Assembly: GCA_964370545.1 (NCBI GenBank)
Contig: CAYJJQ010000001.1
Span: 25,605-89,604, forward strand
Direction: 5' to 3'
DNA: 64,000 nucleotides
From: an uncultured Muribaculaceae bacterium
GTDB lineage: Bacteria > Bacillota_I > Bacilli_A > RF39 > UBA660
Shown: positions 7,175 to 41,875 of the stretch, one piece after another
Position numbering within the stretch: the first letter of the stretch is position 1
Layout of the letters: the number at the start of each line of letters is the position of its first letter
Position numbers and translations under genes: made by a program
Notes under the pieces: model-generated
What the model saw: only the letters and a program-made list of their open reading frames with translations
The model's database searches: none
What the model was told of the DNA's origin: nothing

Positions 7175-7185
7175 AAAGGAGTAAC

Positions 7186-8511
7186 ATGAAAAAAATAAAA
7201 TTAATATTATTAATAGCAATTAGTATTATTTTGATACCATATGAAGTAAATGCGGCTACTGCATCAATTTCTGTGTCATCTTCTAGCACTATTGCTCTTG
7301 GAAATACTGTAACAGTAACAGTTAAACTTTCAAGTTCAACTAAAATAGGATCTTGGGAAATGCTTCTTAACTATGATAGTAGTTATTTAAAATTAACTAG
7401 TGCTACGAGTGAAGAAAAAGGAGTTAAAATGGCCTCAGTATCTCCGACGGGAGTTACTTCTAAAACCTATACATTTAAGTTTAAAACTTTAAAAACAGGT
7501 TCTACTAAAATAAGTGTACCTAGTTATTTAGCATATGAATTTGAAGGTTTAACAAAGATGACTGTATCTTCAGGTTCTAAAACAATAACAATCAAAACTC
7601 AAGCTGATATTGAAGCAAGTTATTCAAAGGATAATGATTTAAAAGCTTTTAGTGTTGAGGGATATACTTTAAATCAAGAATTTAATAAAGATACTTTAGA
7701 ATATTCAGTAGATGTACCTGAGGGAACAGAAAAAGTAAATATTATAGCTACAAAAAATCATTCTCAAGCAACAGTATCAGGATCTGGAGAAGTTGAGGTA
7801 TCGCCTGGAGCTAATGTATTTGAAATATTAGTAAGAGCACAAAATGGTAGTGAACAAATATATAAATTAACTGTTAATGTAATTGATCAAAATCCAATTA
7901 ACGTAAAAGTAGATAATGTTAATTATACAGTAGTTAAATTAAGAGAAAGTTTAACTATGCCAGTTACATTTACAGAAACAACGGTTACTATTAATGAGTT
8001 TGAAATACCAGCATTTTATAATGAAAAATTAAAATATACGCTAGTAGGTTTAAAAGATGAATCCGGTAATATTTCATTACATATTTATGATCAAGAAAAA
8101 AAATCTTATGAATTATATAATGAAATATTATTTAATGGAATTTCACTTTTAGTAAGTGAACCCAAAGGTGAAATACCAAACGGATATACTAAGTATACTG
8201 AAACAATATTAGAAAATGAATTAACGGTATATAAAATATCAAAAGATTCTAGAACAGCATTAATTTATGGAACTAATGTGTTAACAGGAGAAGAAGGATA
8301 TTATATTATAGATACTAAAGATAATAGTATAACTATTTATGATGATGAATATATAGTAGCATTAGAAGAAAAAAATGAATTATTTATGTATATTATACTA
8401 GGATTTTCTGGAATATTATTTATACTATTTATAATTATTATTAAATTATTAAGCTCTAAGAAAAATTCTAAAAAGAAAAAAAGAGTTAAAGCTGATGAAA
8501 TTAACTATTAA
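7186..8511 (+). CDS. membrane-anchored cohesin-domain protein with a cadherin-like beta-sandwich domain
   Basis: Signal peptide. The N-terminal ~130 aa match the type I cohesin pattern (ISVSSSSTIALGNTVTVTVKLSSSTKIGSWEMLLNYDSSYLKLTS). A cadherin-like domain follows (DLKAFSVEGYTLNQEFNKDTLEYSV). C-terminal TM helix plus KKNSKKKKR stop-transfer. Confidence 0.5.
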   Translation: MKKIKLILLIAISIILIPYEVNAATASISVSSSSTIALGNTVTVTVKLSSSTKIGSWEMLLNYDSSYLKLTSATSEEKGVKMASVSPTGVTSKTYTFKFKTLKTGSTKISVPSYLAYEFEGLTKMTVSSGSKTITIKTQADIEASYSKDNDLKAFSVEGYTLNQEFNKDTLEYSVDVPEGTEKVNIIATKNHSQATVSGSGEVEVSPGANVFEILVRAQNGSEQIYKLTVNVIDQNPINVKVDNVNYTVVKLRESLTMPVTFTETTVTINEFEIPAFYNEKLKYTLVGLKDESGNISLHIYDQEKKSYELYNEILFNGISLLVSEPKGEIPNGYTKYTETILENELTVYKISKDSRTALIYGTNVLTGEEGYYIIDTKDNSITIYDDEYIVALEEKNELFMYIILGFSGILFILFIIIIKLLSSKKNSKKKKRVKADEINY

Positions 8512-9795: not shown

Positions 9796-9893
9796 ATAGG
9801 AAGTGTAAACTTCCTGTTTTTTTGTCAAATAAATTGTGTATCATTACAAAATATGTTAATATTATTATGAGTAATACTATAGAAAGGATATGC

Positions 9894-11009
9894 ATGAAAA
9901 GGCTGAAAAAAAATACTATATATTTATTTTTAGGCGTAATAGCATTTACAATAACTACTATTGGTTATTCTTATGCTATCTTTTTTAGTATAGATTCAAG
10001 CACTTTAGAACAGCAAATTTCTGCTGGAGATTTACAAGTTGCATTTAATAATTCTTCTACTTCAATAACCAGAAATTCAATGCTACCTACTAGTGATGCT
10101 GATGGCCTTGCAGCAAGTTCTGCTAGTACAATATATTTACAAAATAATGGCTCTACCGATTCAACTGCTTTTTTTACTGTAAAGTATGACTATGAATCTT
10201 TTACTTCAGATGCAGATTATACTGCTGATAGTATGCTAATACCATTAGAATTTTTAAGAGCTGCAGTATTTGTATATGATGATGTAGCAGGTCAAATGGT
10301 GCAAGCTAGTGATGTGTTTACCTTATCTGAATTACCTGTATATACTGTAGATACTTCAAATTATTATAATAATGCATACAGATTATATTTTGCAAATATA
10401 GAAAAATCAACATCTGGAAATAATGCTCAAACTTATTCAATTAAAGTTTGGCTTGATGAAAATGCACCAGAATATATAAGAGATTACAAATTATATTTAA
10501 ACGTAAATGTAATAGCACAAGTTAAAGATTCAACTAGTAATTATAATTTAAGTGGCACACTTAATGTAAATAGCTCTCCTGTAGCAAATGCTACTATAAG
10601 TTTAATGAATGGTGCATTAAAAGCTACGACTGATGCAAATGGTAATTATACCTTTAATGGAATACCAGAAGCATTATATACACTAGATATTACTACATCT
10701 ACCACTAAATATGAAACAACTTTCAAATTAGAAGAAGGGGATGAACTAAAAAATAGTACGTATGTGAATACTCATACTGTTAATGGTAATACTACATTTA
10801 GTAGTTTAGCGTATACATATGGAACCTCACTTCATAAATTAAAAGAAATTAATAATATATTTGATAATACTAATGAAATTGTTTTAACTGATGGTCAGGT
10901 ATTAACATTGCCTAAAGTATACATTATCACAGGTGGTAATAATTTAGATATAAATGTAAATATTGATGTTGATAATGAAGGTGTTATCAACTTGAGTTTA
11001 GGAGGTTAG
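9894..11009 (+). CDS. secreted TasA/camelysin-like protein with SipW-cognate signal peptide plus a carboxypeptidase-regulatory-like (CarbopepD_reg) domain
   Basis: Internal ATG at 9894 with AAAGGA RBS gives MKRLKKNTIYLFLGVIAFTITTIGYSYAIFFSIDSS, which is a SipW-type signal (GxxxAxF). NGNYTFNGIPEALYTLD is a beta-sandwich motif. The N-domain is paralogous to the two following genes. Confidence 0.5.
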   Translation: MKRLKKNTIYLFLGVIAFTITTIGYSYAIFFSIDSSTLEQQISAGDLQVAFNNSSTSITRNSMLPTSDADGLAASSASTIYLQNNGSTDSTAFFTVKYDYESFTSDADYTADSMLIPLEFLRAAVFVYDDVAGQMVQASDVFTLSELPVYTVDTSNYYNNAYRLYFANIEKSTSGNNAQTYSIKVWLDENAPEYIRDYKLYLNVNVIAQVKDSTSNYNLSGTLNVNSSPVANATISLMNGALKATTDANGNYTFNGIPEALYTLDITTSTTKYETTFKLEEGDELKNSTYVNTHTVNGNTTFSSLAYTYGTSLHKLKEINNIFDNTNEIVLTDGQVLTLPKVYIITGGNNLDINVNIDVDNEGVINLSLGG

Positions 11010-11012
11010 TAT

Positions 11013-11639
11013 ATGAGGCAAAGAAGAATGTACGTTATACCTACAATTTTACTAGTCATTATGATGCTATGTACAGCAACATTTACATATGCATACTTTA
11101 CAGCACCGAGCTCAGAGTCGTATAGTGAATATGACATAACATCTACTAAAACTGGTTTTGCTTATGCAGAATCTGGATCAGAAATAGATTTACTTGTATC
11201 TGGAGATGTAATGCAAGAACCATTACAGAATAATAATGTAGCTGCAGCAACAGCTGTAAATGATGATCCGATTACAGTAACACTAAATACTTCAGTAAAT
11301 GGAGGAACTCTAACTTGTACTTATGATATTTATTATATACCGGATACTCCCTTTATGAATAGTATAGAAAATACAACAAATGAAAAAGAATTTACAATAA
11401 AAGGTGTTTCTGATAAAGGTTCATTTGCAACTGAAATAAATTTAGGAAATGTAACTGAAAAAATTATGTTAGCTGAAAATGTAAATATAGCGTTAAGTGG
11501 AGTAAGCAAAGTATTAGTACAATCATGGACTTTTACAGCAAGCTTTTACAACCAAACTTTTGTCCAAGATGATAATGCGGGAAAAGAATTTGGAGGTAGA
11601 ATTGTTTTAGAAGATTTAGATTGTGAAAATACTTTCTAA
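11013..11639 (+). CDS. TasA/camelysin-family secreted protein (SipW-cognate signal peptide)
   Basis: RBS GGAGG. N-terminus MRQRRMYVIPTILLVIMMLCTATFTYAYFTAPS matches the TasA/CalY GGGTFAFF[ST]D pattern. 208 aa, similar in size to CalY. Paralog of the next gene (conserved TCTYDIYY and WTFTASFYN...DNAGKEFGG motifs). Confidence 0.55.
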   Translation: MRQRRMYVIPTILLVIMMLCTATFTYAYFTAPSSESYSEYDITSTKTGFAYAESGSEIDLLVSGDVMQEPLQNNNVAAATAVNDDPITVTLNTSVNGGTLTCTYDIYYIPDTPFMNSIENTTNEKEFTIKGVSDKGSFATEINLGNVTEKIMLAENVNIALSGVSKVLVQSWTFTASFYNQTFVQDDNAGKEFGGRIVLEDLDCENTF

Positions 11640-11710
11640 AATGACAAAAAAAGACTTGAAAAAAAATAATTTATTTGTTACTATGTATATATAGTAGAGA
11701 AGGAGATAAC

Positions 11711-12358
11711 ATGGAAAGAAAACAAACATTATTGTTAACAGTAATAGCAGTAGCTACTTTACTAGTGGCAGTTGTGGGAGCAACGTTCGCGTTCTTCACG
11801 GCTTCAGGAACAGGATCTGCTGATAGTGAGGTAACAGTTACTACTAGTTCAATAGATACAGTTAATACGACTGCTTCTAACTTAACTTTACAAGTAGGAT
11901 TAACAGATATGCTTTTAGCTAATGGTAGAGATGATTATTCTGCTAGAAAACAAGCTACAAGTACTATTACAATGTCTGCTGGTACTGGAACAGGTGGAGG
12001 TACAAATACATGTACTTATGACTTATCATATACACCTAATTCAGGACAAGATTTTACTCAATCTGCAGCTAACACTGGTGGATTAAACGAGTTAACTATT
12101 TCAGCTGTTGCAACTAACCCTGGTTCAGGAGTAAGTAGTGATAATGCTGTAACAGAATTTTCACTTGATGGCATTACTACAGAGCAAACACTAATCGATG
12201 GTGGAACATTTGCTGTTAGTGGTGTAAGTAATACTGATGTTTTAACTTGGACATTTACTGTAACATTTTATAACTTAGCAGTTGATCAAAGTGATAATGC
12301 TGGTGCGACATTTGGTGGAACACTATCATTTAAAAACGTTACTTGCGTAAACAGTTAA
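11711..12358 (+). CDS. TasA/camelysin-family secreted protein (SipW-cognate signal peptide), paralog of the previous gene
   Basis: AGGAGA RBS and ATG 11711 give MERKQTLLLTVIAVATLLVAVVGATFAFFTASG. The C-terminal motifs TCTYDLSY and WTFTVTFYN...DNAGATFGG are shared with 11013..11639. Confidence 0.55.
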   Translation: MERKQTLLLTVIAVATLLVAVVGATFAFFTASGTGSADSEVTVTTSSIDTVNTTASNLTLQVGLTDMLLANGRDDYSARKQATSTITMSAGTGTGGGTNTCTYDLSYTPNSGQDFTQSAANTGGLNELTISAVATNPGSGVSSDNAVTEFSLDGITTEQTLIDGGTFAVSGVSNTDVLTWTFTVTFYNLAVDQSDNAGATFGGTLSFKNVTCVNS

Positions 12359-16571: not shown

Positions 16572-17804
16572 ATGAAATTATTTGATGATTTAAAAGAAAG
16601 AGGATTACTTAAAGATATATCCTCACCAGAAATTGAAAAAAAGTTAAATGAAGAAACAATTACTTTTTACTGGGGAACTGATCCTACTGCAGATAGTCTG
16701 CATATTGGTCATTATCCAAGTTTAGTAACTGCTAAAAGACTTGCTAAAGCAGGTCATAATCCTATTTTATTAGTAGGAGGAGCAACAGGACTTATTGGAG
16801 ATCCTAGACCTACTAGTGAAAGAACAATAATATCTAAAGAAATAGTAGAAAAAAATATAGAAGGATTAAAAGATCAAGTAAATTTTTTACTTGATGGTAA
16901 AGCAACAATTGTTAATAACTATGATTGGTCTAAAGATATTAATTTTATAGATTTCTTAAGAGATTATGGTAAATACTTTAGTATTAATTATATGCTTGAT
17001 AAAGATATAATAAAAAGAAGATTAGAAACTGGTATTACATATACCGAGTTTAGTTATATGATAATGCAAGCATTAGACTTTGAATATTTAAATCAAAAAT
17101 ATAATTGTACTATGCAAGTAGCAGGATCAGATCAGTGGGGAAATATTACAGCTGGTATAGAGCTTATTAGAAGAAAAAGTGATAAAGAAGCATTTGGATT
17201 TACTATGCCTCTTATCTTAGATAAACATGGTAATAAATTTGGTAAATCTGAAGGTAATGCTTTATGGCTTGATAAAAATAAAACTTCTTCATATACTATG
17301 TATCAATATTTAATTAATTTAGATGATAGCATGATAGATCATTATTTAAAAGTATTTACATTTTTATCACTAGATGAAATAAAAGAAATTAATGCTAAGC
17401 ATGCATTAAAACCAGAAGATAGAATTGCTCAAAAAGCTTTAGCTAAAGAAATAATTACTGATATTCATAGTAAAGAAGATTATGAAAAAGCTAAAAAAAT
17501 AAGTGAAAACTTATTTAGTGAAAAAATATTTGAATTATCTAGTGAAGAAATTATATCATCATTAACAGGAGTTAAAACAATAAATATTAACAGTGATGAA
17601 GACATACTTAACTTACTGGTTAATACAACTATATGTTCTAGTAAAAGAGAAGCTAGAGAGATGCTTGAAGCTGGAGCAATATCTATAAACAATAAAAAAA
17701 TAACTTCATTAGATGAAATTATTTCTAAAAAAGATGCTATAGATAATAAAGTATTACTAATTAAAAAAGGTAAGAAAAATTACTACTTAGGTATATATAA
17801 CTAA
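16572..17804 (+). CDS. tyrS: tyrosyl-tRNA synthetase
   Basis: Class I HIGH motif (SLHIGHYPSL), KMSKS-type KFGKS motif and a C-terminal S4-like domain; 410 aa. Confidence 0.9.
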   Translation: MKLFDDLKERGLLKDISSPEIEKKLNEETITFYWGTDPTADSLHIGHYPSLVTAKRLAKAGHNPILLVGGATGLIGDPRPTSERTIISKEIVEKNIEGLKDQVNFLLDGKATIVNNYDWSKDINFIDFLRDYGKYFSINYMLDKDIIKRRLETGITYTEFSYMIMQALDFEYLNQKYNCTMQVAGSDQWGNITAGIELIRRKSDKEAFGFTMPLILDKHGNKFGKSEGNALWLDKNKTSSYTMYQYLINLDDSMIDHYLKVFTFLSLDEIKEINAKHALKPEDRIAQKALAKEIITDIHSKEDYEKAKKISENLFSEKIFELSSEEIISSLTGVKTININSDEDILNLLVNTTICSSKREAREMLEAGAISINNKKITSLDEIISKKDAIDNKVLLIKKGKKNYYLGIYN

Positions 17805-17849: not shown

Positions 17850-18098
17850 ATGAACCGAGAATATTATAAACCAAGACCAGTACCAATACCAGTTAGAAGA
17901 TATGGATATAAAGAAAATGAAGGTGATAGATTTTTTTTAGCAGCTCCATTTTTATTTGGAGCACTAGCAGGAGGAGCTATAGCAGCATCATCTAGACCAA
18001 GACCAGTATATGTTTATCCACCAGCACAACCGTATTATAATCCGGCAGTGCCATATGCACATTCTAGTTATTCATATTACTATCCTACATATCGTTAA
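17850..18098 (+). CDS. small Tyr/Pro/Ala-rich hypothetical protein (spore-coat-like composition)
   Basis: AAAGGAG RBS 7 nt upstream of ATG 17850. Product MNREYYKPRPVPIPVRRYGY...YYNPAVPYAHSSYSYYYPTYR. Convergent with the SEDS gene and overlaps it by 14 nt. Confidence 0.35.
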   Translation: MNREYYKPRPVPIPVRRYGYKENEGDRFFLAAPFLFGALAGGAIAASSRPRPVYVYPPAQPYYNPAVPYAHSSYSYYYPTYR

Positions 18099-19149
18099 TT
18101 ATTATTCCAATAAATAAAAAAGTAATTATTAAACTTGTTCCACCATATGATAAAAATAATAATGGTATACCCATGATAGGTAATAAACCTAAATTCATGA
18201 GTATATTAAATGATATTTGAAATATAAAAATAGTAGCAAATACTTTAGCAAATAATTTATTATTTGCTTTTTTTATATAACTTATTAATATTAAACTAAT
18301 AAATAAATAACATATAGTAACAATTATTCCTGCTAATAATCCATAATTACCTATATTAAATGCATAAATAAAATCAGTAGGAGCTTCAGGTACATATAGT
18401 GATAATTCTCCAATACCATTTTTTAATAAAGGAGATGATCCTATTAATATAAGTGCATTATTTATTTGATAATTATCACTAAAATATATTAATCTATCTA
18501 TTCTATAAAATAAGGAAGTACCAAATATATTAATAAATAAATCTTCATTAAATATATATAAACTTACTAAACTACCTAATATTATTAATAGTAAAGTAAA
18601 TATAATTATATAATATTTCTTATTAAGTTTAGCACTTAAAAAACATACTAATGCAATTAATAAATAAAATATTATAGCACCTGTATCAGGTTCTAGAAAT
18701 ACTAATACACAAGGTATTAAAGTGTATATAAATAAAAGTATAATATATTTAAAATTATTTGTTTTATTTATAGTTATTTTAGTTAATAACAATGCTAAAG
18801 TTATTTTAGTTAATTCACTAGGTTGTAAAGAAAATACCCCTAAATCAATCCACGCTTTAGCCCCATTTATTTCTTTGCCAAGAAATAACACTAAAATAAG
18901 TAATATAATTGATATTACATATAATATAAAACTATAATCAAATAATTTAATATTATTTATTTTAGTGCAAAAGAATAATATGAAAAAACCAATTATGAAC
19001 CAACATAATTGTTTAATAAAATGACCATCATATAAAGTATTAATCATTTCAGAATTAATCATGTTAAGCAAACTAAGTATCATTAAAATACCTATAGGAT
19101 ATAATATTATATATTTATTTTTATAATTCATACTATTATTATGGTACAA
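18085..19149 (-). CDS. SEDS-family peptidoglycan glycosyltransferase (FtsW/RodA/SpoVE)
   Basis: Polytopic membrane protein with the SEDS C-terminal signature LPIMGIPLLFLSYGGTSLIITFLFIGII. Confidence 0.7.
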   Translation of the reverse strand: MYHNNSMNYKNKYIILYPIGILMILSLLNMINSEMINTLYDGHFIKQLCWFIIGFFILFFCTKINNIKLFDYSFILYVISIILLILVLFLGKEINGAKAWIDLGVFSLQPSELTKITLALLLTKITINKTNNFKYIILLFIYTLIPCVLVFLEPDTGAIIFYLLIALVCFLSAKLNKKYYIIIFTLLLIILGSLVSLYIFNEDLFINIFGTSLFYRIDRLIYFSDNYQINNALILIGSSPLLKNGIGELSLYVPEAPTDFIYAFNIGNYGLLAGIIVTICYLFISLILISYIKKANNKLFAKVFATIFIFQISFNILMNLGLLPIMGIPLLFLSYGGTSLIITFLFIGIIINDM

Positions 19150-19498: not shown

Positions 19499-19816
19499 TT
19501 AGATTAAATCTTCGATATATTTTTTTAATTCTTTAGCTTTTTTATCAAATATTATTTTAAGTTGATTATCAATTTCAACAACGCCTTTAGCTCCTATTTT
19601 TTGAATAGCTTCTTTATCGGCTTTACTAACATCTTTAAGTATAACCTTAAGTCTACTCATATTACATTCGGCATTAACGATATTGTCTTTACCACCTAAG
19701 TATGTAATTAGCTTATTAGCTTCAATATCAAAATCTTTTTTATTTAACTTAAATATAACTAATAATATAATAACTAATACAATTGCTATTATTATATATT
19801 GTAACCATATATCCAT
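19499..19816 (-). CDS. membrane-anchored PTS EIIB-like domain protein
   Basis: N-terminal TM helix then LITYLGGKDNIVNAECNMSRLKVILKD...IGAKGVV, matching the PTS EIIB glucose-type fold including the Cys position. Confidence 0.5.
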   Translation of the reverse strand: MDIWLQYIIIAIVLVIILLVIFKLNKKDFDIEANKLITYLGGKDNIVNAECNMSRLKVILKDVSKADKEAIQKIGAKGVVEIDNQLKIIFDKKAKELKKYIEDLI

Positions 19817-20373: not shown

Positions 20374-20400
20374 AAAACTAGTTTAAAACTAGTTTTTTTT
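20374..20400 (+). terminator. rho-independent terminator
   Basis: Palindromic AAACTAGTTTAAAACTAGTTT followed by T8 after the 20364 stop. Confidence 0.5.
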
Positions 20401-20427
20401 ATGCTATAATAACAATAGTAGGTGGCT

Positions 20428-23400
20428 ATGAAAAAACTTAAGGAAATATTTAATAAAAATAAAATATTAGTAATCGTTATGGCAGTTTCAATTGTTCTTA
20501 TAAGTGGAGTGTCTTTTGCATACTTTGCTGGTTTGATTGGCGCTCCGGCTATAACTGATTTAGATGTGACAAGTCAAAAGGGAAATACTATAGTATTTAC
20601 CCCAGGAACTGCCATTAATTTATATGCTACAGAAGATAACTTTGGACAAACACATACTAGTTTAAGTGGACAGACTATTTCAACTGCTGAATATACATCT
20701 TCTAAAACTGAATTAAATCCTGAAAAATATAATGTTTATTTTGTTATAAATGTAAATGATTTTGAATATACAACTGCATCCGAGGAAACAGAAATACTTT
20801 TAAAAGTAACTAATCCAGAAGGTGTAGAAGTAACTAGCATTACTGGATTTACTCACGATACAGTTACGGATAATGTTTCAGGAGATACATTATCAGGTTT
20901 TGATGTAACTACATTTATGGGTATAGTGCCTATAGCAATAGATTATGAAATAGATTCAATAAATAAGATTAAAACTACTCAACAGTGGAAAGTAGAGCTT
21001 ACTTTTGTTAACCTTGCTACTAAACAAAATGATAATACTAAAAAGACTTTTGAAGGTAAATTAATTTTGCAACAGGGTCCATATGAACCAACACTAGCAG
21101 AATCTATTATATTTGATAATTATGATAATGATGATTTTATATATCATTCAGATAAAAACGAAGACTCAGCAGGAGATAATAGTTTTAGATTCTCAGGTGC
21201 TAACCCTGATAACTATGTTACATTTAATGATGAATCATGGAGAATAATAGGTATCTTTGATGATAAATTAAAACTAATAAGAGAAACTCCATTAGATACA
21301 CTTATGGCATTTGATACAGGTAACTCTAATGACTTTGCAACATCTGATATAAATACTTATTTAAATACTACTTTTTATAATGCCCTTAATTCAGATGCTA
21401 AAAATTTAACGGTATCATCAAAACTTAATATAGGCCCTATATCTACTAATACGGGAGGAGAATATCATAAAACTCCAGGTGTAATAGCTAGAAAAGAAAG
21501 TTTTTTAAAAACATCTAGTTCATACAAAGTTGGTTTAATGAATGCAAGTGATTATTTATTTGCAGCATCAGAAACATATCATACTTTAAATAACTATGAT
21601 GCTACTGATACTAATAACGATTATGCAGATAATGCAAATATGATAGCTACTAATTGGATGTATATATTTGATACATATACAGCATCAGATTTCGAGTGGA
21701 CAGTAACACCAGCAACAGATGGTAATAGTTTAATGCAAATAAGAGCAGTAGGGAACACTAATTCTAACTATGCAACTAATAATGGATTAGCAGCTAGACC
21801 AACTGTTTATATTACAGGTGATGCCAGATTATCAATTGGTACTGGAACATCTGCAGATTCATATATTCTAAGTCTTCCATTGCAAGGTGCCTCTAAACAC
21901 CTAGTAGAAAATCATGACGCAGGTGAAGGATTATACCAACATACAGCAGATCTAGCTAACGGAGCAGGAGATAATAACTATAGATACTCAGGACCTGATT
22001 CGCTAGTAAAAAACTATGTAACATTTAATGATGAAATGTGGAGAATAATAGGTATCTTTGATGGTAAATTAAAACTAATAAAAGAAACATCAATAGGAAC
22101 ATATGAGTTTGATCCAGGAAATGATAACTCATGGGCCGATGATGGTGGAGGAGTAGAAGGAAATCAACTCCTAAATAACTATTATTTTAATAGTACAGTA
22201 GCCCCAAATCTCTTAGCAGATTGTGGCGGCTCTGGTAGAGGAAGTTGTGATTTCACATCAACGGGACTAGATGCAACTGCAAGAGCAATGGCAGAAACAT
22301 CAACATGGTACTTAGGAGCTCCTGATACAAATAATCAAACAGCAAATGCATTTTATAAAGAAGAAAGAGGAAGTGCAACAACAGATGGAACACATATAAC
22401 AACAGAGGCAAATATAGGATTATTATATATGAGTGATTATGGATATGCAGCATCAAGTAATGCATGGACAACAAACCTAGTTCGTTATGATACAAACTCA
22501 ATACCTGCAAATAACTGGATGTTTAGTGGATTATATGAGTGGTCAATATCGCCTAATTTGTCTGGCTCTAGCAGCGTGTTGGGTGTAAGCAGCAGCGGTG
22601 ATGCGAACAACTACTATGCCAGAGGTGGGTCTGCGTGGCGCCCAACCTTATACCTGAAATCAAATGTAGAAATCATAGGAGGATCAGGAACTGAAAGTGA
22701 TCCGTTTAAAATAGGTTTAGATGCTAATAAATACTTAATAGATAGTCATGGAGCAGAAGAAGGGCTTTACCAGCATACAGCAGATTTAACAAATGGAGCA
22801 GGAGATAATAATTATAGATATTCAGGACCTGATTCATTAGTAAAAAACTATGTAACATTTAATGATGAAATGTGGAGAATAATAGGAGTTTTTGATGGAA
22901 ATGTAAAACTAATAAAAGAAACATCAATAGGAACATATGAATTTGATCCAGGAGATGATAACTCATGGGCCGATGATGGTGGAGGAGCAGAAGGAAATCA
23001 ACTACTCAATAACTATTATTTTAATAGTGCAGTAGCGCCAAATTTGTTAGCAGATTGTGGTAATACAAGTAGAGGAAGTTGCGACTTCACATCAACAGGA
23101 CTAGACGCAACAGCAAGATTAATGGTAGAAACATCAACATGGTACTTAGGGGCTCCTGATACATATAATCAAACAGCAAATGCATTTTATAATGACGAAA
23201 GAGGAAGCGTGACATCTACAGGAACCCATATAACAACAGAGGCAAATATAGGATTAATGTATGTAAGTGATTATGGATATGCAGCCTCAAGTAATGCATG
23301 GACAACAAATTTAATTGATTATAATACTAACTCAATACTAGCAAGTAACTGGATGTGTAGTGGAGTTTTCGAGTGGTCAATATCGCCTTATTTGTCTCGC

Positions 23401-23556
23401 TCTAACTTCGTGTGGTATGTTTACGACAACGGTGATGCGGACAGCTACTACGCCAGCTATGGGAGTGCGTGGCGCCCAACCTTATACCTGAAGGCCGAAA
23501 CGAAGATTGTAGGAGGAACGGGAACTGAAAGTGATCCGTTCCAGTTAGGACTATAA
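20428..23556 (+). CDS. large secreted protein: SipW-cognate signal + TasA-like N-domain + three ~270-aa repeat domains (last two near-identical)
   Basis: N-terminus MKKLKEIFNKNKILVIVMAVSIVLISGVSFAYFAGLIGAP is a SipW-type signal. Residues ~190-215 (QWKVELTFVNLATKQNDNTKKTFEGKLIL) are paralogous to the C-terminal motif of the small TasA-like proteins. Repeats: A ~21130-21900, B 21901-22735, C 22736-23556. B and C end in GC-rich patches. The start may be GTG 20422 or ATG 20428. Confidence 0.6.
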   Translation: MKKLKEIFNKNKILVIVMAVSIVLISGVSFAYFAGLIGAPAITDLDVTSQKGNTIVFTPGTAINLYATEDNFGQTHTSLSGQTISTAEYTSSKTELNPEKYNVYFVINVNDFEYTTASEETEILLKVTNPEGVEVTSITGFTHDTVTDNVSGDTLSGFDVTTFMGIVPIAIDYEIDSINKIKTTQQWKVELTFVNLATKQNDNTKKTFEGKLILQQGPYEPTLAESIIFDNYDNDDFIYHSDKNEDSAGDNSFRFSGANPDNYVTFNDESWRIIGIFDDKLKLIRETPLDTLMAFDTGNSNDFATSDINTYLNTTFYNALNSDAKNLTVSSKLNIGPISTNTGGEYHKTPGVIARKESFLKTSSSYKVGLMNASDYLFAASETYHTLNNYDATDTNNDYADNANMIATNWMYIFDTYTASDFEWTVTPATDGNSLMQIRAVGNTNSNYATNNGLAARPTVYITGDARLSIGTGTSADSYILSLPLQGASKHLVENHDAGEGLYQHTADLANGAGDNNYRYSGPDSLVKNYVTFNDEMWRIIGIFDGKLKLIKETSIGTYEFDPGNDNSWADDGGGVEGNQLLNNYYFNSTVAPNLLADCGGSGRGSCDFTSTGLDATARAMAETSTWYLGAPDTNNQTANAFYKEERGSATTDGTHITTEANIGLLYMSDYGYAASSNAWTTNLVRYDTNSIPANNWMFSGLYEWSISPNLSGSSSVLGVSSSGDANNYYARGGSAWRPTLYLKSNVEIIGGSGTESDPFKIGLDANKYLIDSHGAEEGLYQHTADLTNGAGDNNYRYSGPDSLVKNYVTFNDEMWRIIGVFDGNVKLIKETSIGTYEFDPGDDNSWADDGGGAEGNQLLNNYYFNSAVAPNLLADCGNTSRGSCDFTSTGLDATARLMVETSTWYLGAPDTYNQTANAFYNDERGSVTSTGTHITTEANIGLMYVSDYGYAASSNAWTTNLIDYNTNSILASNWMCSGVFEWSISPYLSRSNFVWYVYDNGDADSYYASYGSAWRPTLYLKAETKIVGGTGTESDPFQLGL
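21901..23556 (+). repeat. intragenic tandem direct repeat, 2 x ~835 bp (~90% identical)
   Basis: 21901-22735 and 22736-23556 encode ENHDAGEGLYQHTADL...SAWRPTLYLK twice. The differences cluster in a ~63-nt patch near each repeat end. Confidence 0.85.
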
Positions 23557-23587
23557 TACTAAAAGGAAGACCGACCCTGAAAGTGTA

Positions 23588-23630
23588 GTCACGCTGCCAG
23601 GCGGATGTCTGGCCGTGACCGATTTTATTA
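23588..23630 (+). other. GC-rich stem-loop downstream of the giant gene (terminator and/or DGR-type target-recognition hairpin)
   Basis: GTCACG(CT)GCCAG-GCGGATGT-CTGGCCGTGAC forms an 11-bp stem with an 8-nt loop, then CGATTTTATT. About 60% GC in a 27% GC genome. Confidence 0.5.
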
Positions 23631-23649
23631 ACAATAAAAAGGAGCGCAT

Positions 23650-24033
23650 ATGAATAGTAAAGGATTTACATTAATAGAACTACTTGCTGTGATAGTTGTT
23701 CTTGCTATAGTTGGTACTCTATCAATAGTTATATATAGCGGGTTTAGTGATTCTATTAAAGAAAAAGAATATGAAACATTAATTAATTTATATAAATCAT
23801 CTATAAAAGTGTATGTTGAGGATAATGATTATGATAATGTAACTATTGTTCTTCAAGAACTTATTGATACTGATTATGTAAGTGCTCCGGCTGATGGAAT
23901 AATAATTAATCCAATCAATGAAAGTTATAAACTTAATTGTTTAAAGTTTAATGTAATTAAGGAAAATAATGAGTATATAGTTTCTTATGATGAAACAAGT
24001 ACTAATGTTTTAATAGAAGATAAATGTAATTAA
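23650..24033 (+). CDS. type IV pilin / ComGC-like pseudopilin
   Basis: RBS AAAGGAG. Product is MNSKGFTLIELLAVIVVLAIVGTL..., a canonical class III prepilin leader with Gly before the cleavage site, Phe at +1 and Glu at +5. Confidence 0.75.
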   Translation: MNSKGFTLIELLAVIVVLAIVGTLSIVIYSGFSDSIKEKEYETLINLYKSSIKVYVEDNDYDNVTIVLQELIDTDYVSAPADGIIINPINESYKLNCLKFNVIKENNEYIVSYDETSTNVLIEDKCN

Positions 24034-24074: not shown

Positions 24075-24114
24075 ATAAAATGTTATAATTAAGTTGGAGA
24101 AACTTGGAGGATAT

Positions 24115-26199
24115 ATGGATATTTTAAGTACACTTAATGATAATCAGAAAAAAGCAGCAATGCATATAGATGGTCCTTGTTTAGTAATTGCCGGAGCAGG
24201 TTCTGGTAAAACAAAAGTGCTAACAACAAGAATTGCTAATTTAATAAATAATCATGTATATAGTAGTAATATACTAGCTATTACATTTACAAATAAAGCA
24301 GCTAAGGAAATGAGAGATAGACTTAATAACATAGTTAGTGATAACTATGCTTTTGTAGGAACATTTCATTCTTTTGGTGTTAAGATAATTAGGGAAAATT
24401 ATGATAAAGTAGGATTAGATAAGAATTTTACTATTTTAGATTCAGATGATAGTTTAAGTGTTATAAAAAAAATACTTAAAGATATGAATATAGATGTAAA
24501 AGAGATTAGTCCTCATTATATAAAAAATAAAATAAGTTTTATAAAAAATGAATTATTAACTGATGCTGGAATAGAAAGACATTTTAATACTTATGTAGAT
24601 AAAAAGGTAGCAGAAATATATTATAAATATGATAATATACTTAGAAGAAATAATGCTATAGATTTTGATGATTTACTTAAAAAACCAGTATTATTATTTA
24701 AAGAAAATAAAGAGATATTAGAACATTATCAAGAAAAATTTAAATATATTTTAGTAGATGAGTATCAAGATACTAATGAAGTGCAGTATATACTTATAAA
24801 ACTACTTAGTGATAAACATAAGAATATATTTGTAGTAGGTGATGTTAATCAAAGTATTTATGCATTTAGATATGCTAACTATAAAAATATACTGAACTTT
24901 GAAAAAGATTTTAAGAACTGTGTTACTATAACTTTAAATCAAAATTATAGAAGTACAACTAATATATTAAGTGCTGCTAATGATGTAATAAAAAATAATT
25001 CCGAAAGAAAAGATGTGGAGTTATTTTCTGAGTTAGGAACTGGTACTCAAATAAAATATTTTAGAACCTATAATGATCAAAGTGAAGCTCTTAATGTAGT
25101 AGAAGAAATCAAAAGATTAATAAATAGTGGATATAATAAAAAAGATATAGCAGTTTTTTATAGAACTAATGCACAATCTCGTGGTATAGAAGAAAAAATG
25201 CTTAAAAGTAATATACCATATAAAGTAGTAGGAAGTTTTTTCTTCTATAAGAGAAAAGAAATTAAAGATTTAATAGCTTATTTAAGGTTACTATCTAATA
25301 CAAAAGATGATGTTGCTTTAGAAAGAGTTATTAACGTACCCAAAAGAAAGATAGGACCTACAACTGTTAATAATATTAGAAATAAAAGTGATGAGTTAAA
25401 TACATCTATGTTTGATGCAATTGATAGTGGTAAAGAATTAGAATTTAAAAATGTTATTAATGAACTTATAAAAGATAAAGAAAATTTAAGTTTAACTGAA
25501 TTAATAGATGCAGTTTTAGAAAAAACAAAAATGTTAGAAGAACTTAAAAATGAAAAAAGTTTAGAAGCAGATTTAAGAATAGAATATTTAATGGAATTTA
25601 AAAGTATTACTGAAAACTTTCAAAAAGAAACAGGTATAGTAAACTTAGAAGATTTCTTAGAATCTATATCACTTGTAGCAGATATAACAGAGCATAAAGA
25701 TTATGATGATGTTGTTACCCTGATGACAATACATGCTTCTAAAGGTCTTGAATTTAAAGTTGTATTTATAATTGGAATGGAAGAAGGTATATTGCCTCAT
25801 CAAAATTCACTATTTGAAAAATCAGAATTAGAAGAAGAAAGAAGATTATGTTATGTTGCTATAACTAGAGCAAAAGAAAAATTATATATTTCTAATGCTG
25901 AAAGAAGAATGTTATTTGGTAAAATAAGTGCTAATATGCCATCAAGGTTTATAGATGAAATTAATGATAAACTACTTGATATATTAGAAGAAAAACCTAA
26001 AATAGAAGAAAAGAAAATTGATAAAAATATCTTATATGGTGATAATAAAGAATATAGTATGGGAGATACAGTATTTCATGTTACATTTGGACAAGGAAAA
26101 GTTACAGCAATTGATGATAGATTTGTAACTGCAAATTTTGGAACAAGATTTGGAGAAAAAAAAGTACTTAAAAATTATAAAGGTATGCAAAGGAGATAA
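24115..26199 (+). CDS. pcrA: ATP-dependent DNA helicase PcrA (UvrD family)
   Basis: RBS GGAGGA then ATG 24115. Walker A AGAGSGKTKVLT, DEYQDTN, TIHASKGLEF, and a C-terminal Tudor-like tail. About 694 aa. Confidence 0.85.
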   Translation: MDILSTLNDNQKKAAMHIDGPCLVIAGAGSGKTKVLTTRIANLINNHVYSSNILAITFTNKAAKEMRDRLNNIVSDNYAFVGTFHSFGVKIIRENYDKVGLDKNFTILDSDDSLSVIKKILKDMNIDVKEISPHYIKNKISFIKNELLTDAGIERHFNTYVDKKVAEIYYKYDNILRRNNAIDFDDLLKKPVLLFKENKEILEHYQEKFKYILVDEYQDTNEVQYILIKLLSDKHKNIFVVGDVNQSIYAFRYANYKNILNFEKDFKNCVTITLNQNYRSTTNILSAANDVIKNNSERKDVELFSELGTGTQIKYFRTYNDQSEALNVVEEIKRLINSGYNKKDIAVFYRTNAQSRGIEEKMLKSNIPYKVVGSFFFYKRKEIKDLIAYLRLLSNTKDDVALERVINVPKRKIGPTTVNNIRNKSDELNTSMFDAIDSGKELEFKNVINELIKDKENLSLTELIDAVLEKTKMLEELKNEKSLEADLRIEYLMEFKSITENFQKETGIVNLEDFLESISLVADITEHKDYDDVVTLMTIHASKGLEFKVVFIIGMEEGILPHQNSLFEKSELEEERRLCYVAITRAKEKLYISNAERRMLFGKISANMPSRFIDEINDKLLDILEEKPKIEEKKIDKNILYGDNKEYSMGDTVFHVTFGQGKVTAIDDRFVTANFGTRFGEKKVLKNYKGMQRR

Positions 26200-30152: not shown

Positions 30153-30533
30153 ATGAAAGTTATAGTTTGTGTAGATGATAATTTAGGTATACTTTTTAAT
30201 AAAAGAAGAGTATCTAAAGATAGTAAAATAATAGAGGATATAATAAGTAATTATGAAGATATTTATATTAATGAATATTCTAAAGAATTATTTATAGATA
30301 ATTATATAGTTAGTGATAAACTTGAAGAGGGAATTAATTTTGTAGAAAACAATTCTTTATTAGGAATGGAAGATAAAATAACTGAAGTAATTATTTATTA
30401 CTTTAATAGAAAATATCCAAGTGATCTAAAGTTAGAACTTGATTTAAATAAATATAATGAAGTAAGTAAAACTGAATTTGTAGGAAGTTCTCACGATAAA
30501 ATCACTAAAGTAGTTTATGAGGTGGTAAAATGA
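30153..30533 (+). CDS. hypothetical cytoplasmic protein, translationally coupled to the downstream nuclease-like gene
   Basis: 126 aa with no signal peptide. Its stop overlaps the next start (ATGA). Confidence 0.35.
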   Translation: MKVIVCVDDNLGILFNKRRVSKDSKIIEDIISNYEDIYINEYSKELFIDNYIVSDKLEEGINFVENNSLLGMEDKITEVIIYYFNRKYPSDLKLELDLNKYNEVSKTEFVGSSHDKITKVVYEVVK

Positions 30534-31216
30534 AAAAAGCTATAGCAAGTTTAATAATAATAGGATCGTTAATATTTACTTTTTATTCAGAAATAACACA
30601 TGCATACAATACATATTTTGAAGATGACACACTTTATTCATCAGAAGAAGTGATTGAGTATGATGGAGAACTTTATGAATCGGTTAATAATAATGTGCCC
30701 AATTTTACTGATGAAGACAGAAGAAAAACAGTATTTGAAAGTTATAGTGAATTAGACAGCTTAGGAAGAGCAGGTGTAGCTTTTGCTAGAATAGATAAAT
30801 CATTAATGCCTACTGAAGATAGAGGAAGTATTGGGAGTGTTAAGCCTAGTGGTTGGCATACCGTAAAATATGATATTGTATCAGGTAATTATTTATATAA
30901 TAGATCTCATTTAATTGGTTTCCAATTAACAGGAGAAAATGCGAATGAAAATAATTTAATAACAGGAACTAGATATTTTAATGTAGAAGGTATGCTGATA
31001 TTTGAAAATATGGTTGCTGATTACATAAAAGAAACAAATAACTCTGTATTATATAGAGTAACTCCTATATATGAAGGAAATAATCTCGTAGCAAGTGGAG
31101 TTACTATAGAAGCAGAATCAGTAGAAGATGATGGAATATTATTTAATGTATATGTACATAATATTCAACCGGGAATAGTTATAAACTATAGTGATGGAAC
31201 TAGTTATTTAGAATAG
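30530..31216 (+). CDS. secreted EndA-like DNA/RNA non-specific endonuclease-family protein (DNA-entry nuclease-like)
   Basis: Signal peptide. SIGSVKPSGWHTVKYD...YNRSHLIGFQLTG aligns with the EndA-type ...SGWH...DRGHLI.Y.LGG core. DRGH is replaced by NRSH, with the His retained. Confidence 0.45.
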   Translation: MKKAIASLIIIGSLIFTFYSEITHAYNTYFEDDTLYSSEEVIEYDGELYESVNNNVPNFTDEDRRKTVFESYSELDSLGRAGVAFARIDKSLMPTEDRGSIGSVKPSGWHTVKYDIVSGNYLYNRSHLIGFQLTGENANENNLITGTRYFNVEGMLIFENMVADYIKETNNSVLYRVTPIYEGNNLVASGVTIEAESVEDDGILFNVYVHNIQPGIVINYSDGTSYLE

Positions 31217-33297: not shown

Positions 33298-34035
33298 ATG
33301 AAGAAAAAAATTATATTATTTATGGCACTTTTATGTATGCCGATTTATGCTAATGCATCCACTTGTTCAACAGAAGAACAACTTACTTTAAGAAATGGAG
33401 CTAGCTTAATTACAGCGGCTTATGAAGAGTCAGAAAGAGAAGTTGATCCATCAACGTATATTCCTCCAGGAAATTTAACTGAAGAGGAAAAAGAAAATTA
33501 TGTTGAGATGGAAACATTTTTTAATATTAATATATTAAACATAACTACTGATTATTATGTTGAAATTACTAATAATCAAAATAATGAAGTTATTTTGGTT
33601 AGAGCAAATGATACAGAAGATGGTAAATATACATTTGAACATAATAATTTAAATACTGTTACAACTTATACCATGTCTGTGTATTCATCTAATGATACTG
33701 GTTGTCCAGATGAAAGATTATCAATTGTAAGAGTTACTACTCCAATGATTAATCCGTTTGCTTCATATGATGTATGTTCTATATATCCTGATGAAAGTGT
33801 TTGTCAAAAATATGTTACTACTCCAGGTTTTGATAGCACAATGTTTTATAACGCTATTAATGGATTAAAAGCTGAAAATGTGGAGAATCCAGAAGATGAT
33901 GACGATGGTGTAATAGCTGAAACAACAGATTTTATTAAAGATTATTATTTATATTTTATTATAGGGGCAGTAATAATTGCTGCAGGGGTTATAGTATTTG
34001 TGATACTAAAAAAGAAAAGAGGTAAGAAAAAATGA
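33298..34035 (+). CDS. secreted surface protein with C-terminal TM anchor; first gene of the Tad-like operon
   Basis: Signal peptide MKKKIILFMALLCMPIYANAS. C-terminal TM plus KKKRGKKK. Overlaps the next gene by 4 nt. Confidence 0.4.
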   Translation: MKKKIILFMALLCMPIYANASTCSTEEQLTLRNGASLITAAYEESEREVDPSTYIPPGNLTEEEKENYVEMETFFNINILNITTDYYVEITNNQNNEVILVRANDTEDGKYTFEHNNLNTVTTYTMSVYSSNDTGCPDERLSIVRVTTPMINPFASYDVCSIYPDESVCQKYVTTPGFDSTMFYNAINGLKAENVENPEDDDDGVIAETTDFIKDYYLYFIIGAVIIAAGVIVFVILKKKRGKKK

Positions 34036-37000
34036 AAAAAATAAGTTATTTAATAGTTTTCGTTTTATCAATTTTTATTTTTAGTAATGTAAATGCAGAG
34101 ACATTTAATGTTACTCATAAAGATTTAAAAGGACCTTCAGGTTTATATTTGGGGGATATGGATGATTCTTCTTATAATAAAACATTTTATATAACTGTAT
34201 ATAATGCTAATTACTTAGGAACGAATTATAGTGCGTTTTGTTTAGATCCGGGATTAAGAACGAATACTACTTACACAACTAGTGTAGATTTATCTAGTTC
34301 TTCTAGAAGAGGTTTAGAAGAGTATGATTATGGCCTTAAAACTATTTTAATTAATGGTTATAATATTAATAATACTACAACTACTAATCCAGTTACTGGA
34401 AGTAATTTAACAGCAGATGAGTTTAAAGTTGCAACAACTATAGCTCTAAGATCTTATGTACTTGCATGGGGAAGCTTTAACTCATCTTCAGTACTTACAG
34501 AGGAAAAATCGGCATATATAAATGAAACAGCATTATGGAATTATAATGCTGCTGAAGATGGAATATTTGATACACAGAGATTTGAATGGATTTCCAATGA
34601 AAAAATAGGACTAAATAGTTCCAAAAATTTTGATGATTATGATTCAAGTATAAACTTCAACTCGAGTAGCGAAGTTGGAGAAGGTGTATTCCAGGTTGCA
34701 AGAGAGCTATACTATGATGGTATGGATGCAGCAACAAAATATGCTACTACATCTCAATTAAGTCCTGATGTTGTAAATACATCAAGAGATGTTACTAATG
34801 ATGATGATTCAATTACTAGAACAATTACTTTAACGCCAACTAACTTTAATGGTAAAACAGGAACCTTAACTTCATTAAGAGTATCTGGTGTTAGTGGTGT
34901 TAGTTATAAAATAAGTAAAAATGGATCAGAATCAACACTTACATCATTTAGTAATGTTACTTTAGATGAAAATACAAAAATAATTATTACATTTACAGTA
35001 ACTCCTCAAACAGGAAAAAATGTTGATTATAATTTAAATTATTCATTTAATCATGAAGATTTAGATTCAGGAAGATTTATTCTTTTAGGAGAAGGTCAAG
35101 CAAACGTACAAAGATTACTTCTTTATGTACCAGGAGATACTAGTAAAGTATTTAATGATGAATTTACTATAGTTGGTGATGTAGCTTGTAAAACTGAAAT
35201 AGATATTCCAGGAGCTTGTTCAAATTATGATGATGAACATTTTACTGGAGAAATAAATGGACCAGAAGATATTAAAAATTGTGTAATAGATGGCCAAGAT
35301 GAAGCTGGTAACTCATACCAAGCTGAAACTTGTGATGATAATATAATACCATCGGATAGTAATGATTACTGTCAAGTTTATTGTACTGAGGATTTTGAAA
35401 TTGAATTTCCTGGTATGAGACCAGTAAATAGTGGTAGATATTTTGATATAGGGGCACAAATTGTTGCTACAAAATCATGTTATACTAGTGAAATAGATCA
35501 TGATCAATTTGATGAAGATATAGAAAATGCTATTAATGCTGTAATTGCAGCATATAATAGATATTCAGAAGCATCTGCAGTTGTAGAAGGGTTAAATTCA
35601 TCATATATTGGAACAAAAAAATATGATGATAAAGTTACATATTTTTCATATGATGCTGGTAGACCCGAGAAAACAAAACAAGAATGTACAGAAAGTATTA
35701 AAGATGGAGAAACTGTTGAAACTTGCAGAACTGTAGTTACTCAAAGTTATATTGCTCCGCATTGTGATAGAGATGGAAGTGGAACACATGATGCTAATGA
35801 ATGTGGCGATAGAATAGTTCCAAGCAAAAGTTATACAACATATTATATTTCTAACGGAGTACTTCAAAGTAGAACAGAGAATACTTCTTCAAAAACTTAT
35901 GATGGAGATGATGGTAATACATATTCAAATGGTATAATGTCATCTTGTAATGATAGGGTATCATCTTGTGATAACGGAAGTATACCATCTAGTGTAACTT
36001 CAGCAGCGAACAGTGAAAAATCATCGGCTAAAACTGCATTAGATAATGCAATAAATGCATATAATGCAATTATTAATGATTATAAATTATGTTCTGATTG
36101 GGATTATAGTTATGATAGCGTTCCTGAGATAACATATTCATATGAATCAAAATACGATAATTTACTTAGTGGTAGTGACAGAAAAATGGACTCTGATAGT
36201 TCAAGATTAGATGTTGATACTTATGAGTGTGATGAGAATTATGAAAATTGTGGAACTTTAGATAAGGAAACAGTATCATATATTACTTGTACAACAAGTG
36301 GTTGTACAACAACTTCTTACCAATTAAACAGAGATGCTGGAATAGTAAAAAAGACTGGTGATAAAACTATAGATTATGAAACACCAGAAATATTTTATCA
36401 ATACTGGCCGTCAGGAGAAGTATTTATAGAAGATGAGGGTTATGTTAATAGTAGTAATACAGGAACCGTAAGTACAGTTGATGGTTTACCAGTTGAAATA
36501 GAGCATAATGCAGGAGCATATGACTTTGTATTTACAATAGACGGACTAGGAGAGTATTATGATGACTGTGGTGAAGATGGAAGAATTATAAATGAATCTG
36601 ATCCAAGTGGAACTGTACTTGAAAAAAATGAAACAGCATTTGAAGGTGAATATGTATGTCAATATTTAGTTAACTGTCCAGAGTGTGAATTTGATGTAAC
36701 TTATATACCTGATCCAGATGAGTGTACTAACTGCTTATTTACAGCAGGATACTTACAAGCTCATTATAGACCTACATCAGTTGGTTCTTTAACTGCTAAT
36801 GATAGAGAAATGGGATGGAACTGGAATAGAAATGATGGAACATTCTTAGGTGAAAAAGCAGGGGATACACTTGATGATATTATTAATAATGGGGATTCAG
36901 TTTATTTAGGAACGCCGTTATTAACAGTTAACTTAACTGCGGATTTAGCAGCAGATATAAGAATGTATAACGATAGAGAAGAAAAAAATGGTGGATATAA

Positions 37001-37235: not shown

Positions 37236-37642
37236 GTAATGCGTATTGGGGATACTGGTTAGTATTACTTGGTGTATTTATTGTAGTTGTATTATTATTA
37301 ATACAAAACGTAACTACAGCTAACGTACAAAATGCTTCACTTATTAAAGAAATATCTGAAGCAGCAATGATTGATTCAGTAGATTATGCATATTATCGTG
37401 ATTACGGTGAAATAAAAATTAATGCTGAAAAATTTGAAGAAACATTTACAAGAAGAATGGCAGAAATAGTTACTGGTGGAACGACTTATAAAATTGAATT
37501 TCATAGAATTTATGAGTCTCCTCCAGCTATTGCATTAGATGTATCTAGTAGATCTAGTACATTTAATATATTTGGTGATGAAACAACTTTTGATTTAACT
37601 GATAGAGTAGAAGCTATTCTTGAAGGAAGTATAAAAGGATAA
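37232..37642 (+). CDS. small single-TM protein (TadE/RcpC-like accessory candidate)
   Basis: RBS GAGGAGG. N-terminal TM WLVLLGVFIVVVLLLI then a ~110-aa soluble domain. Confidence 0.3.
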   Translation: MSNAYWGYWLVLLGVFIVVVLLLIQNVTTANVQNASLIKEISEAAMIDSVDYAYYRDYGEIKINAEKFEETFTRRMAEIVTGGTTYKIEFHRIYESPPAIALDVSSRSSTFNIFGDETTFDLTDRVEAILEGSIKG

Positions 37643-37653
37643 AAGGAGGATAA

Positions 37654-38445: not shown

Positions 38446-38482
38446 AATAAAAGAATAAAAGAATAAAAAAGGTGGTGAACGT

Positions 38483-39571: not shown

Positions 39572-39586
39572 GAAGGGAGAATATTT

Positions 39587-41626: not shown

Positions 41627-41643
41627 AAAAAGGAATGATTTAA

Positions 41644-41871: not shown

Positions 41872-41875
41872 TTAG

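Follow-up and report, generated by a model that had tools for sequence, protein, structure and literature searches.

GC-rich patches in two tandem lectin-like domains of a low-GC bacterium's surface protein are probable variable regions of a diversity-generating retroelement

We describe a forward-strand gene at 20422-23556 of a 64,000-nt stretch of DNA from an uncultured Muribaculaceae bacterium (contig CAYJJQ010000001.1, assembly GCA_964370545.1); the whole stretch is called the window here. According to the open reading frame (ORF) listing and the translation, its product is a secreted or anchored protein of 1044 aa in which an N-terminal module is followed by three DUF6273-like domains (repeats A, B and C). 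Repeats B and C each carry a GC-rich patch, and these patches are very probably variable regions (VRs) written by a diversity-generating retroelement (DGR), at the tips of two lectin-like domains of one surface protein. DUF6273 targets of DGRs have so far been described mainly in gut phages. A preliminary description of the window had already proposed a DGR. Its placing of VRs in a C-type-lectin-like domain, with the reverse transcriptase (RT) and template repeat (TR) outside the window, is borne out indirectly, by related DGR cassettes, by divergence confined to the VRs and by the predicted fold; its hairpin, its SipW-type signal and its claim to novelty fared less well.

Results

The patches, at 22549-22658 and 23383-23492, are the two highest GC peaks of the window, reaching 55-57% over 100 nt against a baseline of 26.8% (mean of 100-nt windows, standard deviation 6.3%). 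The compositions given in the preliminary description are reproduced: 55% GC and 22% A at 22561-22660, and 54.5% GC and 20.8% A at 23395-23495. The equivalent stretch of repeat A (21700-21830) is AT-rich, as it had also said, with about 36-37% GC and 39-41% A. At third codon positions, GC makes up 10% in that stretch and 17% in the bodies of repeats B and C, but 58-66% in the patches.

Aligned over 22540-22659, the two patch copies share 97 of 120 positions. Of the 23 differences, 19 lie at codon positions 1-2 and four at position 3, compared with 33 and 39 in the repeat bodies (Fisher p=0.003). Positions 1-2 differ at a rate of 25% in the patch vs 8% in the body (p=7e-5), and non-synonymous differences are found at 13 of 38 patch codons vs 28 of 204 body codons (p=0.004). 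An origin as NNY codons derived from AAY (Y, pyrimidine) fits 12 of the 17 differing codons, with AGC/AAC, AGC/TTC, GGT/TAT, AGC/TAC and TCT/AGT among the pairs. These counts agree with the earlier claim that the differences fall mainly at positions 1-2 of AAC-type codons. Two details of that claim change: 14 of the 21 codons in 22564-22626 differ, not 15, and the variable block, which is indeed a confined segment, truly extends over 22555-22631. We delimit VR1, the internal variable region, at 22549-22631 from the codon comparison and the GC peak (first differing base 22555, last 22631), and VR2, at the C-terminal end of the gene, at 23383-23465; both, like all features of the target gene given below, are on the forward strand. 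The two VRs have very different substitution spectra: the putative adenine sites of VR1 are almost only G (AGC five times, GGT twice, GGC), producing a Ser/Gly-rich loop, and those of VR2 are mostly T, producing Tyr and Phe.

Each VR runs into a 27-nt block, TGCGTGGCGCCCAACCTTATACCTGAA, which is identical in the two copies (22632-22658 and 23466-23492) and resembles an initiation of mutagenic homing (IMH) site. It opens with GCGTGGCGCCCAACC, 12 of whose 15 letters are G or C; this string occurs exactly twice in the window, where the preliminary description had placed it, and the chance expectation is zero even with three mismatches. The block falls on the codons A-x-R-P-x-L-Y-L, and it is here that homology between TR and VR stops in three related DGR cassettes, L005 (GCA_964371745.1), L011 (GCA_964369625.1) and L012 (ERZ4883054).

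Repeat A (21097-21882) is a divergent DUF6273-like domain without a VR; its identity to repeat C is 31%. The DUF6273/C-lectin-like domains that bear VR1 and VR2 are repeats B (21883-22716) and C (22717-23553), which share 80% amino-acid identity at an offset of exactly 834 nt. The Pfam model DUF6273 (PF19789) scores 21 bits on repeat A (residues 282-464), under its 23.5-bit cut-off, and has no match on repeats B and C; a precomputed PF19789 match is present in many homologues. An AlphaFold model of repeat C from an alignment of 77 homologues is confident (predicted local distance difference test, pLDDT, 93.9; predicted template modelling score, pTM, 0.93). It resembles DUF6273 and C-lectin folds, including those of the DGR targets TvpA and Mtd, and the VR falls on its last beta-strands. 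The earlier suggestion that the repeat domain be modelled for a C-type-lectin fold is thereby answered with a DUF6273/C-lectin fold.

The nearest outside relatives of repeat B are the targets in DGR cassettes, together with two proteins (P0156 and P0157) described below. All three cassettes show the order target, bAvd, RVT_1 RT, TR, second target, in hosts of 26-27% GC. The TRs are 88-93 nt long with 31-33 adenines, lie just 3' of the RT gene, and align to the ends of both target genes in the same register as VR1 and VR2. Adenines make up only about one third of each TR. All 16 TR-VR mismatches of L012 are at TR adenines, as are 11 of 17 and 14 of 17 in the two targets of L005, and 15 of 26 and 16 of 23 in those of L011, so that non-adenine mismatches amount to 18-42% in L005 and L011. 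The cassette VRs, too, are GC-rich and A-poor (47-57% GC and 20-27% A), which makes the composition of the patches a family trait of these VRs in AT-rich hosts. The cassette target domains share 40-48% identity with repeats B and C, and they resemble them further in the register and GC-richness of the VR and in the R-P codons at which TR-VR homology stops. They differ in being single-domain proteins (373-458 aa) that flank the RT, where the window protein has three domains, two VRs and no RT nearby. In L012 the two targets have 170-nt 3' ends (1684-1853 and 5285-5454), VR included, that are 100% identical, and about 20 nt beyond the stop codon are identical as well; this may reflect either a very recent conversion or an assembly collapse.

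Homologues from a first protein search numbered in the hundreds; they are single-domain proteins of 370-480 aa with no more than 48% identity, and many differ from one another only in the segment equivalent to the patch. Among 14 metagenomic variants of the L012 type, the high-entropy columns overlap the columns that differ between repeats B and C at 11 of 13 (hypergeometric p=1e-4). Closer relatives came from a joint query of repeats B and C: P0156 (775 aa), P0157 (776 aa) and P0158 (783 aa), each with the same N-terminal module and two VR-type domains. In comparisons of the window protein with these three, the bodies are 71-81% identical and the two 26-residue VR segments 37-44% (Fisher p from 1e-5 to 1e-10), and all 29 residues of the C-terminal tail of P0156 are identical. 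P0121, which has one VR-type domain, shows the same contrast, 79-80% in the body vs 33-37% in the VR (p about 1e-6). The preliminary description had called for a comparison between genomes, and in these four proteins hypervariability is indeed confined to the VRs, at the protein level. P0156, P0158 and P0121 are encoded on one 63,815-bp NCBI contig, a single contig of a relative thus holding three paralogs of the two-VR and one-VR family; P0157 is encoded on another, of 18,531 bp. Judged from these predicted proteins, the two-VR architecture is a conserved trait of a small gene family, and since P0156, P0157 and P0158 share it, the layout in the window is not an assembly accident. The word-indexed protein search with repeat C alone had missed P0121 and P0156-P0158 at about 80% body identity, and longer queries found them; negatives from that kind of search need caution.

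Placing A at every site that differs between the patches gives a predicted TR of 99 nt with 31 A and 46% GC, TCGCCTAATTTGTCTAGCTCTAACAACGTGTKGAATGTAAACAACAACGGTGATGCGAACAACTACTAYGCCAGAAATGGGAATGCGTGGCGCCC, with the translation SPNLSSSNNVWNVNNNGDANNYYARNGNAWRPT and expressible as the degenerate pattern TCGCCTNATTTGTCTNGCTCTANCNNCGTGTNGNNTGTNNNCNNCANCGGTGATGCGNACANCTACTANGCCAGNNNTGGGNNTGCGTGGCGCCC. It closely resembles the real TRs of the family (88-93 nt, 31-33 A). We infer that such a TR, about 99 nt long and containing about 31 adenines, exists or existed and is common to both VRs.

Discussion

If a DGR wrote the patches, an RT with its Avd partner would copy template-repeat RNA into cDNA with random bases opposite the template adenines, and the cDNA would take the place of the VR as far as a fixed boundary on the 3' side, the IMH, a role for which the identical 27-nt block starting with GCGTGGCGCCCAACC is the candidate. 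The outcome would be a C-type-lectin-like (DUF6273) domain with random residues on its binding face and an unchanged scaffold. In this surface or secreted protein, two such diversifiable domains would stand in tandem after a non-variable domain. The Avd-TR-RT core would sit at another place in the genome, be carried by a mobile element, or have been lost. That the core is still present and acts in trans is a proposition that we would neither favor nor disfavor, and the question whether the VRs are still rewritten is likewise close to even. More tentatively, and with somewhat less than even confidence, we suggest that a remote cellular DGR (more than 20-40 kb away, on another replicon or in a prophage) serves a small chromosomal family of surface proteins with tandem lectin domains and a TasA-like 'AYF' module. 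If true, this would be a DGR that acts in trans on several targets and several VRs, in a low-GC Bacilli-like lineage that has barely been sampled, and the two binding sites of one adhesin could be varied in combination.

Several observations weigh against a DGR, or at least against one that is at work now. The Avd-TR-RT core was not found within the 20 kb upstream or the 40 kb downstream of the target. A repeat finder detected no template repeat in the window, and scoring of the 97 invariant patch positions on both strands of the window gave no third copy, the best other site matching 45 of 97. Searches of the window by tblastn with the RTs and Avds of the L005 and L011 cassettes found none; hidden Markov models (HMMs) of the RTs and Avds from the three cassettes, run on its six frames, reached at best only 6.7 and 8.9 bits; and a motif scan of it found no co-occurrence of YxDD with an SQ motif. 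Pfam found no RT or Avd among 39 window ORFs, which covered every ORF of at least 245 aa except 373-2409, 3009-4868, 16572-17804, 18085-19149 and 24094-26199. By each of these routes the preliminary description was right that the window holds neither TR nor RT. Beyond the window, TR-pattern scans (one degenerate pattern on genome contigs, one on metagenome contigs and three on viral contigs) gave nothing, or chance matches in genomes of 50-71% GC. For four window proteins there was no exact copy among recorded sequences. Phage and plasmid collections had no match to the window locus in DNA or protein, and three viral contigs with distant target homologues at the contig ends had no RT in the flanks of those homologues. 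As for ORFs considered as RT or Avd by their size, 18085-19149 was set aside as FtsW/RodA-like, judged on its translation alone, and others (including 19499-19816 and 30153-31216) were PTS-EIIB-like, without a significant family match, or a non-specific endonuclease.

Further difficulties come from the cassettes, the patches and one group of relatives. In all three cassettes the targets lie within about 0.3-1.2 kb of the RT gene. Two patch differences, 22580 T/G and 22617 T/C, need either non-adenine changes or in-frame stops in the TR; changes of the former kind do happen in this family, as its TR-VR pairs demonstrate. Synonymous divergence is no lower in the patch (4 of 25 same-amino-acid codons) than in the body (27 of 176; p=1.0); this gives no sign of recent homing, and we dropped the idea of dating the last homing event in this way. 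Finally, the VR-equivalents of the P0101 group (P0094-P0120), at 11249-11353 of locus L013 and 7162-7266 of locus L014, have 53% GC and 18% A and yet are invariant across about 25 protein clusters and many samples. The neighbours of these loci are comEA, comEC and pilin-like genes, no RT is encoded within 10 kb of them, and their VR-equivalent is apparently a frozen VR. Since this patch never varies, a GC-rich patch alone is no proof of ongoing diversification.

The case of the P0101 group brings up the possibility that the window's own VRs are relics, DGR-written but now frozen coding sequence, the retroelement having since been lost or having never come with the gene. This contests only the 'still active' part of our interpretation, and we consider it possible, if on the doubtful side. 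It would account for the lack of RT, Avd and TR over the 20 kb upstream and 40 kb downstream, when cassette targets directly flank the RT, and for synonymous divergence that is not reduced in the patch; it also has precedents, both in the GC-rich, A-poor and non-varying VR that the P0101 group keeps and in phages that retain DUF6273 targets after DGR loss, as reported in a preprint (bioRxiv 10.1101/2024.10.15.618418). However, the reading frame is unbroken, each VR retains the same 27-nt IMH-like block, and cellular DGRs with targets over 100 kb from the RT are on record (PMC5758913). Moreover, P0156, P0157 and P0158 show fresh diversity in both VRs, from which it follows that the diversifying machinery has been active in the lineage.

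It would be a more radical step to dispense with the DGR, and to explain the patches as hypervariable loops shaped by diversifying selection and recombination among paralogous lectins, with the GC content coming from a horizontally acquired mosaic segment. There is no TR or RT at hand with which to apply the adenine rule to VR1 and VR2, the GC-richness runs on past VR2 (23494-23620, 45-54% GC) in a way that suggests a foreign segment, and the non-adenine mismatches of L005 and L011 could be cited in the same sense. Still, selection and recombination leave unexplained both the AAY-type differing codons with fixed third positions and the identity of the invariant positions between the copies; the homologous segments of relatives adjoin bAvd, RT and TR, with mismatches mostly or only at adenines; and the predicted TR matches real TRs of the family in length and adenine count. 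We think this explanation very unlikely. At the opposite extreme, a complete DGR might have been overlooked in cis, with its template inside the window, for example in the Asn-rich stretch GNTNSNYATNNG of repeat A, and an unrecognised RT nearby. Repeat A does have several AAY codons at roughly homologous positions, but it is only about 50% identical to the VRs in DNA and its invariant positions are unmatched, and as a TR it is ruled out by that low identity. With no third copy above 45 of 97, and no RT signal in any frame by HMM (6.7 bits at best) or by YxDD and SQ motifs, a DGR in cis is effectively refuted and has next to no probability.

DGR-written VRs at the ends of two domains, the interpretation that we prefer, can be set beside several known systems. 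DUF6273 with a C-terminal VR and a C-lectin-like fold is a published class of DGR target in gut phages (PMC10743442, PMC11792537, bioRxiv 10.1101/2024.10.15.618418), comprising tentaclins and Mtd-like second targets (Baykov et al. 2023, PMC10743442), a Faecalibacterium prophage (PMC11792537) and Toutatisvirus (bioRxiv 10.1101/2024.10.15.618418). The window protein shares with these the domain family, the C-lectin-like fold and the VR at the C-terminal end, on a beta-hairpin surface. The phage systems often have two targets per DGR, one of which may lie about 17 kb from the TR, and some of their targets persist without a DGR, as described in the preprint (bioRxiv 10.1101/2024.10.15.618418). Unlike the phage targets, the window gene is chromosomal and cellular, lying among housekeeping genes with no phage or plasmid sequence match; its one ORF combines an N-terminal signal/anchor module with two VR domains, and there is no core within 20-40 kb. 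ORFs with several VRs are known from Marichromatium purpuratum, with three VRs in three tandem FGE-sulfatase paralogs of one ORF (Schillinger et al. 2012, PMC3521204), and from a CLec1 target in which two of the three VRs are internal (Wu et al. 2018, PMC5758913). As in the window, tandem C-lectin-type domains there each bear a VR, and the IMH of an internal VR must also encode protein, as the IMH-like block of VR1 would; the domain subfamily differs, being DUF6273-like in the window rather than FGE-sulfatase. Treponema denticola TvpA, one of the known remote DGR targets, is unrelated in sequence (14% identity), and the Treponema TR and RT are known. The N-terminal DUF6273 domain of the Thomasclavelia ramosa IgA protease (PDB 9qa6; PMC12402451) is 18% identical; that protein is a metallopeptidase and is not reported to be diversified by a DGR.

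The novelty implied by the preliminary description is accordingly low, since DUF6273 targets of DGRs, ORFs with several VRs and remote targets have all been published. What is new is a cellular, chromosomal branch of the DUF6273 target class in a poorly sampled low-GC lineage, with a conserved two-VR architecture behind a distinctive N-terminal module, and in the window with no retroelement within 20-40 kb. The locus leaves our understanding of the DGR mechanism unchanged. It does illustrate that in an AT-rich genome DGR-written VRs are recognisable from sequence alone, as GC-rich, A-poor islands with AAY-type codon differences, and two variable lectin domains in one protein could allow the organism to vary two binding surfaces at once. 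A caution is in order: because a relative keeps the GC-rich signature without varying, the signature marks a history of DGR action, not necessarily present activity.

Other features of the window

A GC-rich hairpin at 23588-23619, 31 nt past the stop codon, had been described as an 11-bp stem with an 8-nt loop, like those that promote DGR retrohoming. It folds instead into a stem of 6+7 bp, interrupted by a 2-nt bulge and closed by the 4-nt loop GGAT, and GATTTTATT comes after it; as DNA its fold is stable (-14.4 kcal/mol, z=-3.1, a stability that none of 200 shuffles reached). The DGR hairpins of the literature have GC stems of 7-10 bp with 4-nt GRNA loops and lie 4-34 bp past the VR (Guo et al. 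2011, PMC3240598), and a confident inverted repeat is present in only 34% of DGRs (Wu et al. 2018, PMC5758913). The stem at 23588-23619 is GC-rich and the loop is of 4 nt, but the hairpin begins about 95 nt downstream of the IMH-like block, nothing like it follows VR1, and on its 3' side come a T-tract and then the ribosome-binding site of the next gene. Because of the distance, the T-tract and the missing VR1 counterpart, the simpler reading is that it is the gene's terminator, although it may be a DGR-type inverted repeat. A strict terminator scan did not call it. The post-stop hairpins of L005 and L011 are AT-rich and terminator-like. The tails directly after VR1 and VR2 have no significant fold (z=+0.37 and z=-1.47), and no known RNA family was found in 22400-23800.

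The GC-richness of the 3' end extends over 23494-23620, the last 20 codons and the intergenic sequence, which stays at 45-54% GC, compared with about 30-35% in the matching tail of repeat B; this stretch could be a donor-derived segment or a cis-acting region. Within it, 23515-23541 reads GGAACGGGAACTGAAAGTGATCCGTTC (encoding GTGTESDPF). L011 has two counterparts (2977-3003 and 6468-6494): the one in target B is identical and the one in target A matches at 26 of 27 positions, in proteins that share only about 45% identity. The sequence could pair into a hairpin of 7-8 bp about 22 nt beyond the IMH-like block, inside the 4-34-bp range of published cases; L005 and L012 do not conserve it, and the fold is the non-significant one of the VR2 tail. 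It may be a cis element or a recombination footprint.

At its 5' end the target gene is preceded by a promoter-like site (20382-20410). The N-terminal module (20422-21096) consists of a hydrophobic signal or anchor ending in GVSFAYFAG and a beta-rich region, and is about 36% identical by blastp to that of the P0101 group. The preliminary description had assigned it a TasA/SipW-type signal; the corresponding NCBIfam model, TIGR04088, has no match to the window protein even at E up to 10, and scores P0101 at 11.5 bits against a 19-bit cut-off. A G-x-S-F-A-Y-F motif is visible by eye in the target N-terminus and recurs in relatives, with motifs related to GVSFAYFAG seen in P0101, P0121-P0123, P0156 and three window ORFs. 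The likeness to a SipW-type signal is a lead, not a finding. The three window ORFs stand in a row at 9822-12358 (395, 208 and 227 aa), with the motifs SYAIFF, TYAYFT and TFAFFT; they too are below the TIGR04088 threshold, and the third is homologous to the P0101 N-terminal module (tblastn E=5e-9). They may be the substrate family of one dedicated signal peptidase.

Directly downstream of the target, 23650-24033 encodes a small prepilin-type protein, ComGC-like, with the N_methyl motif GFTLIELLAV. Two homologues of the target domain, P0078 and P0085, carry prepilin signals, which hints at a link between lectin domains of this type and pseudopili. Further on, a T2SSE-type secretion ATPase (38483-39571) stands amid a cluster of ORFs at 33298-44195. 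Of the nine ORFs tested there (245-1067 aa), eight, including the one of 1067 aa, have no Pfam match, and the cluster may be an uncharacterised pilus or secretion system. On the reverse strand at 44269-46957 are two paralogous ORFs of 408 and 442 aa, also without a Pfam match, which share a 161-nt repeat (78% identical); in one of the two lies a long Asp-rich array, built of 9-12-nt units (GAT/GAC runs, 46295-46546). Lastly, at 5459-8511, the gene of a dockerin/SH3 protein adjoins that of a cohesin/cadherin-like protein, which suggests a cellulosome-style surface assembly in this organism of 27% GC.

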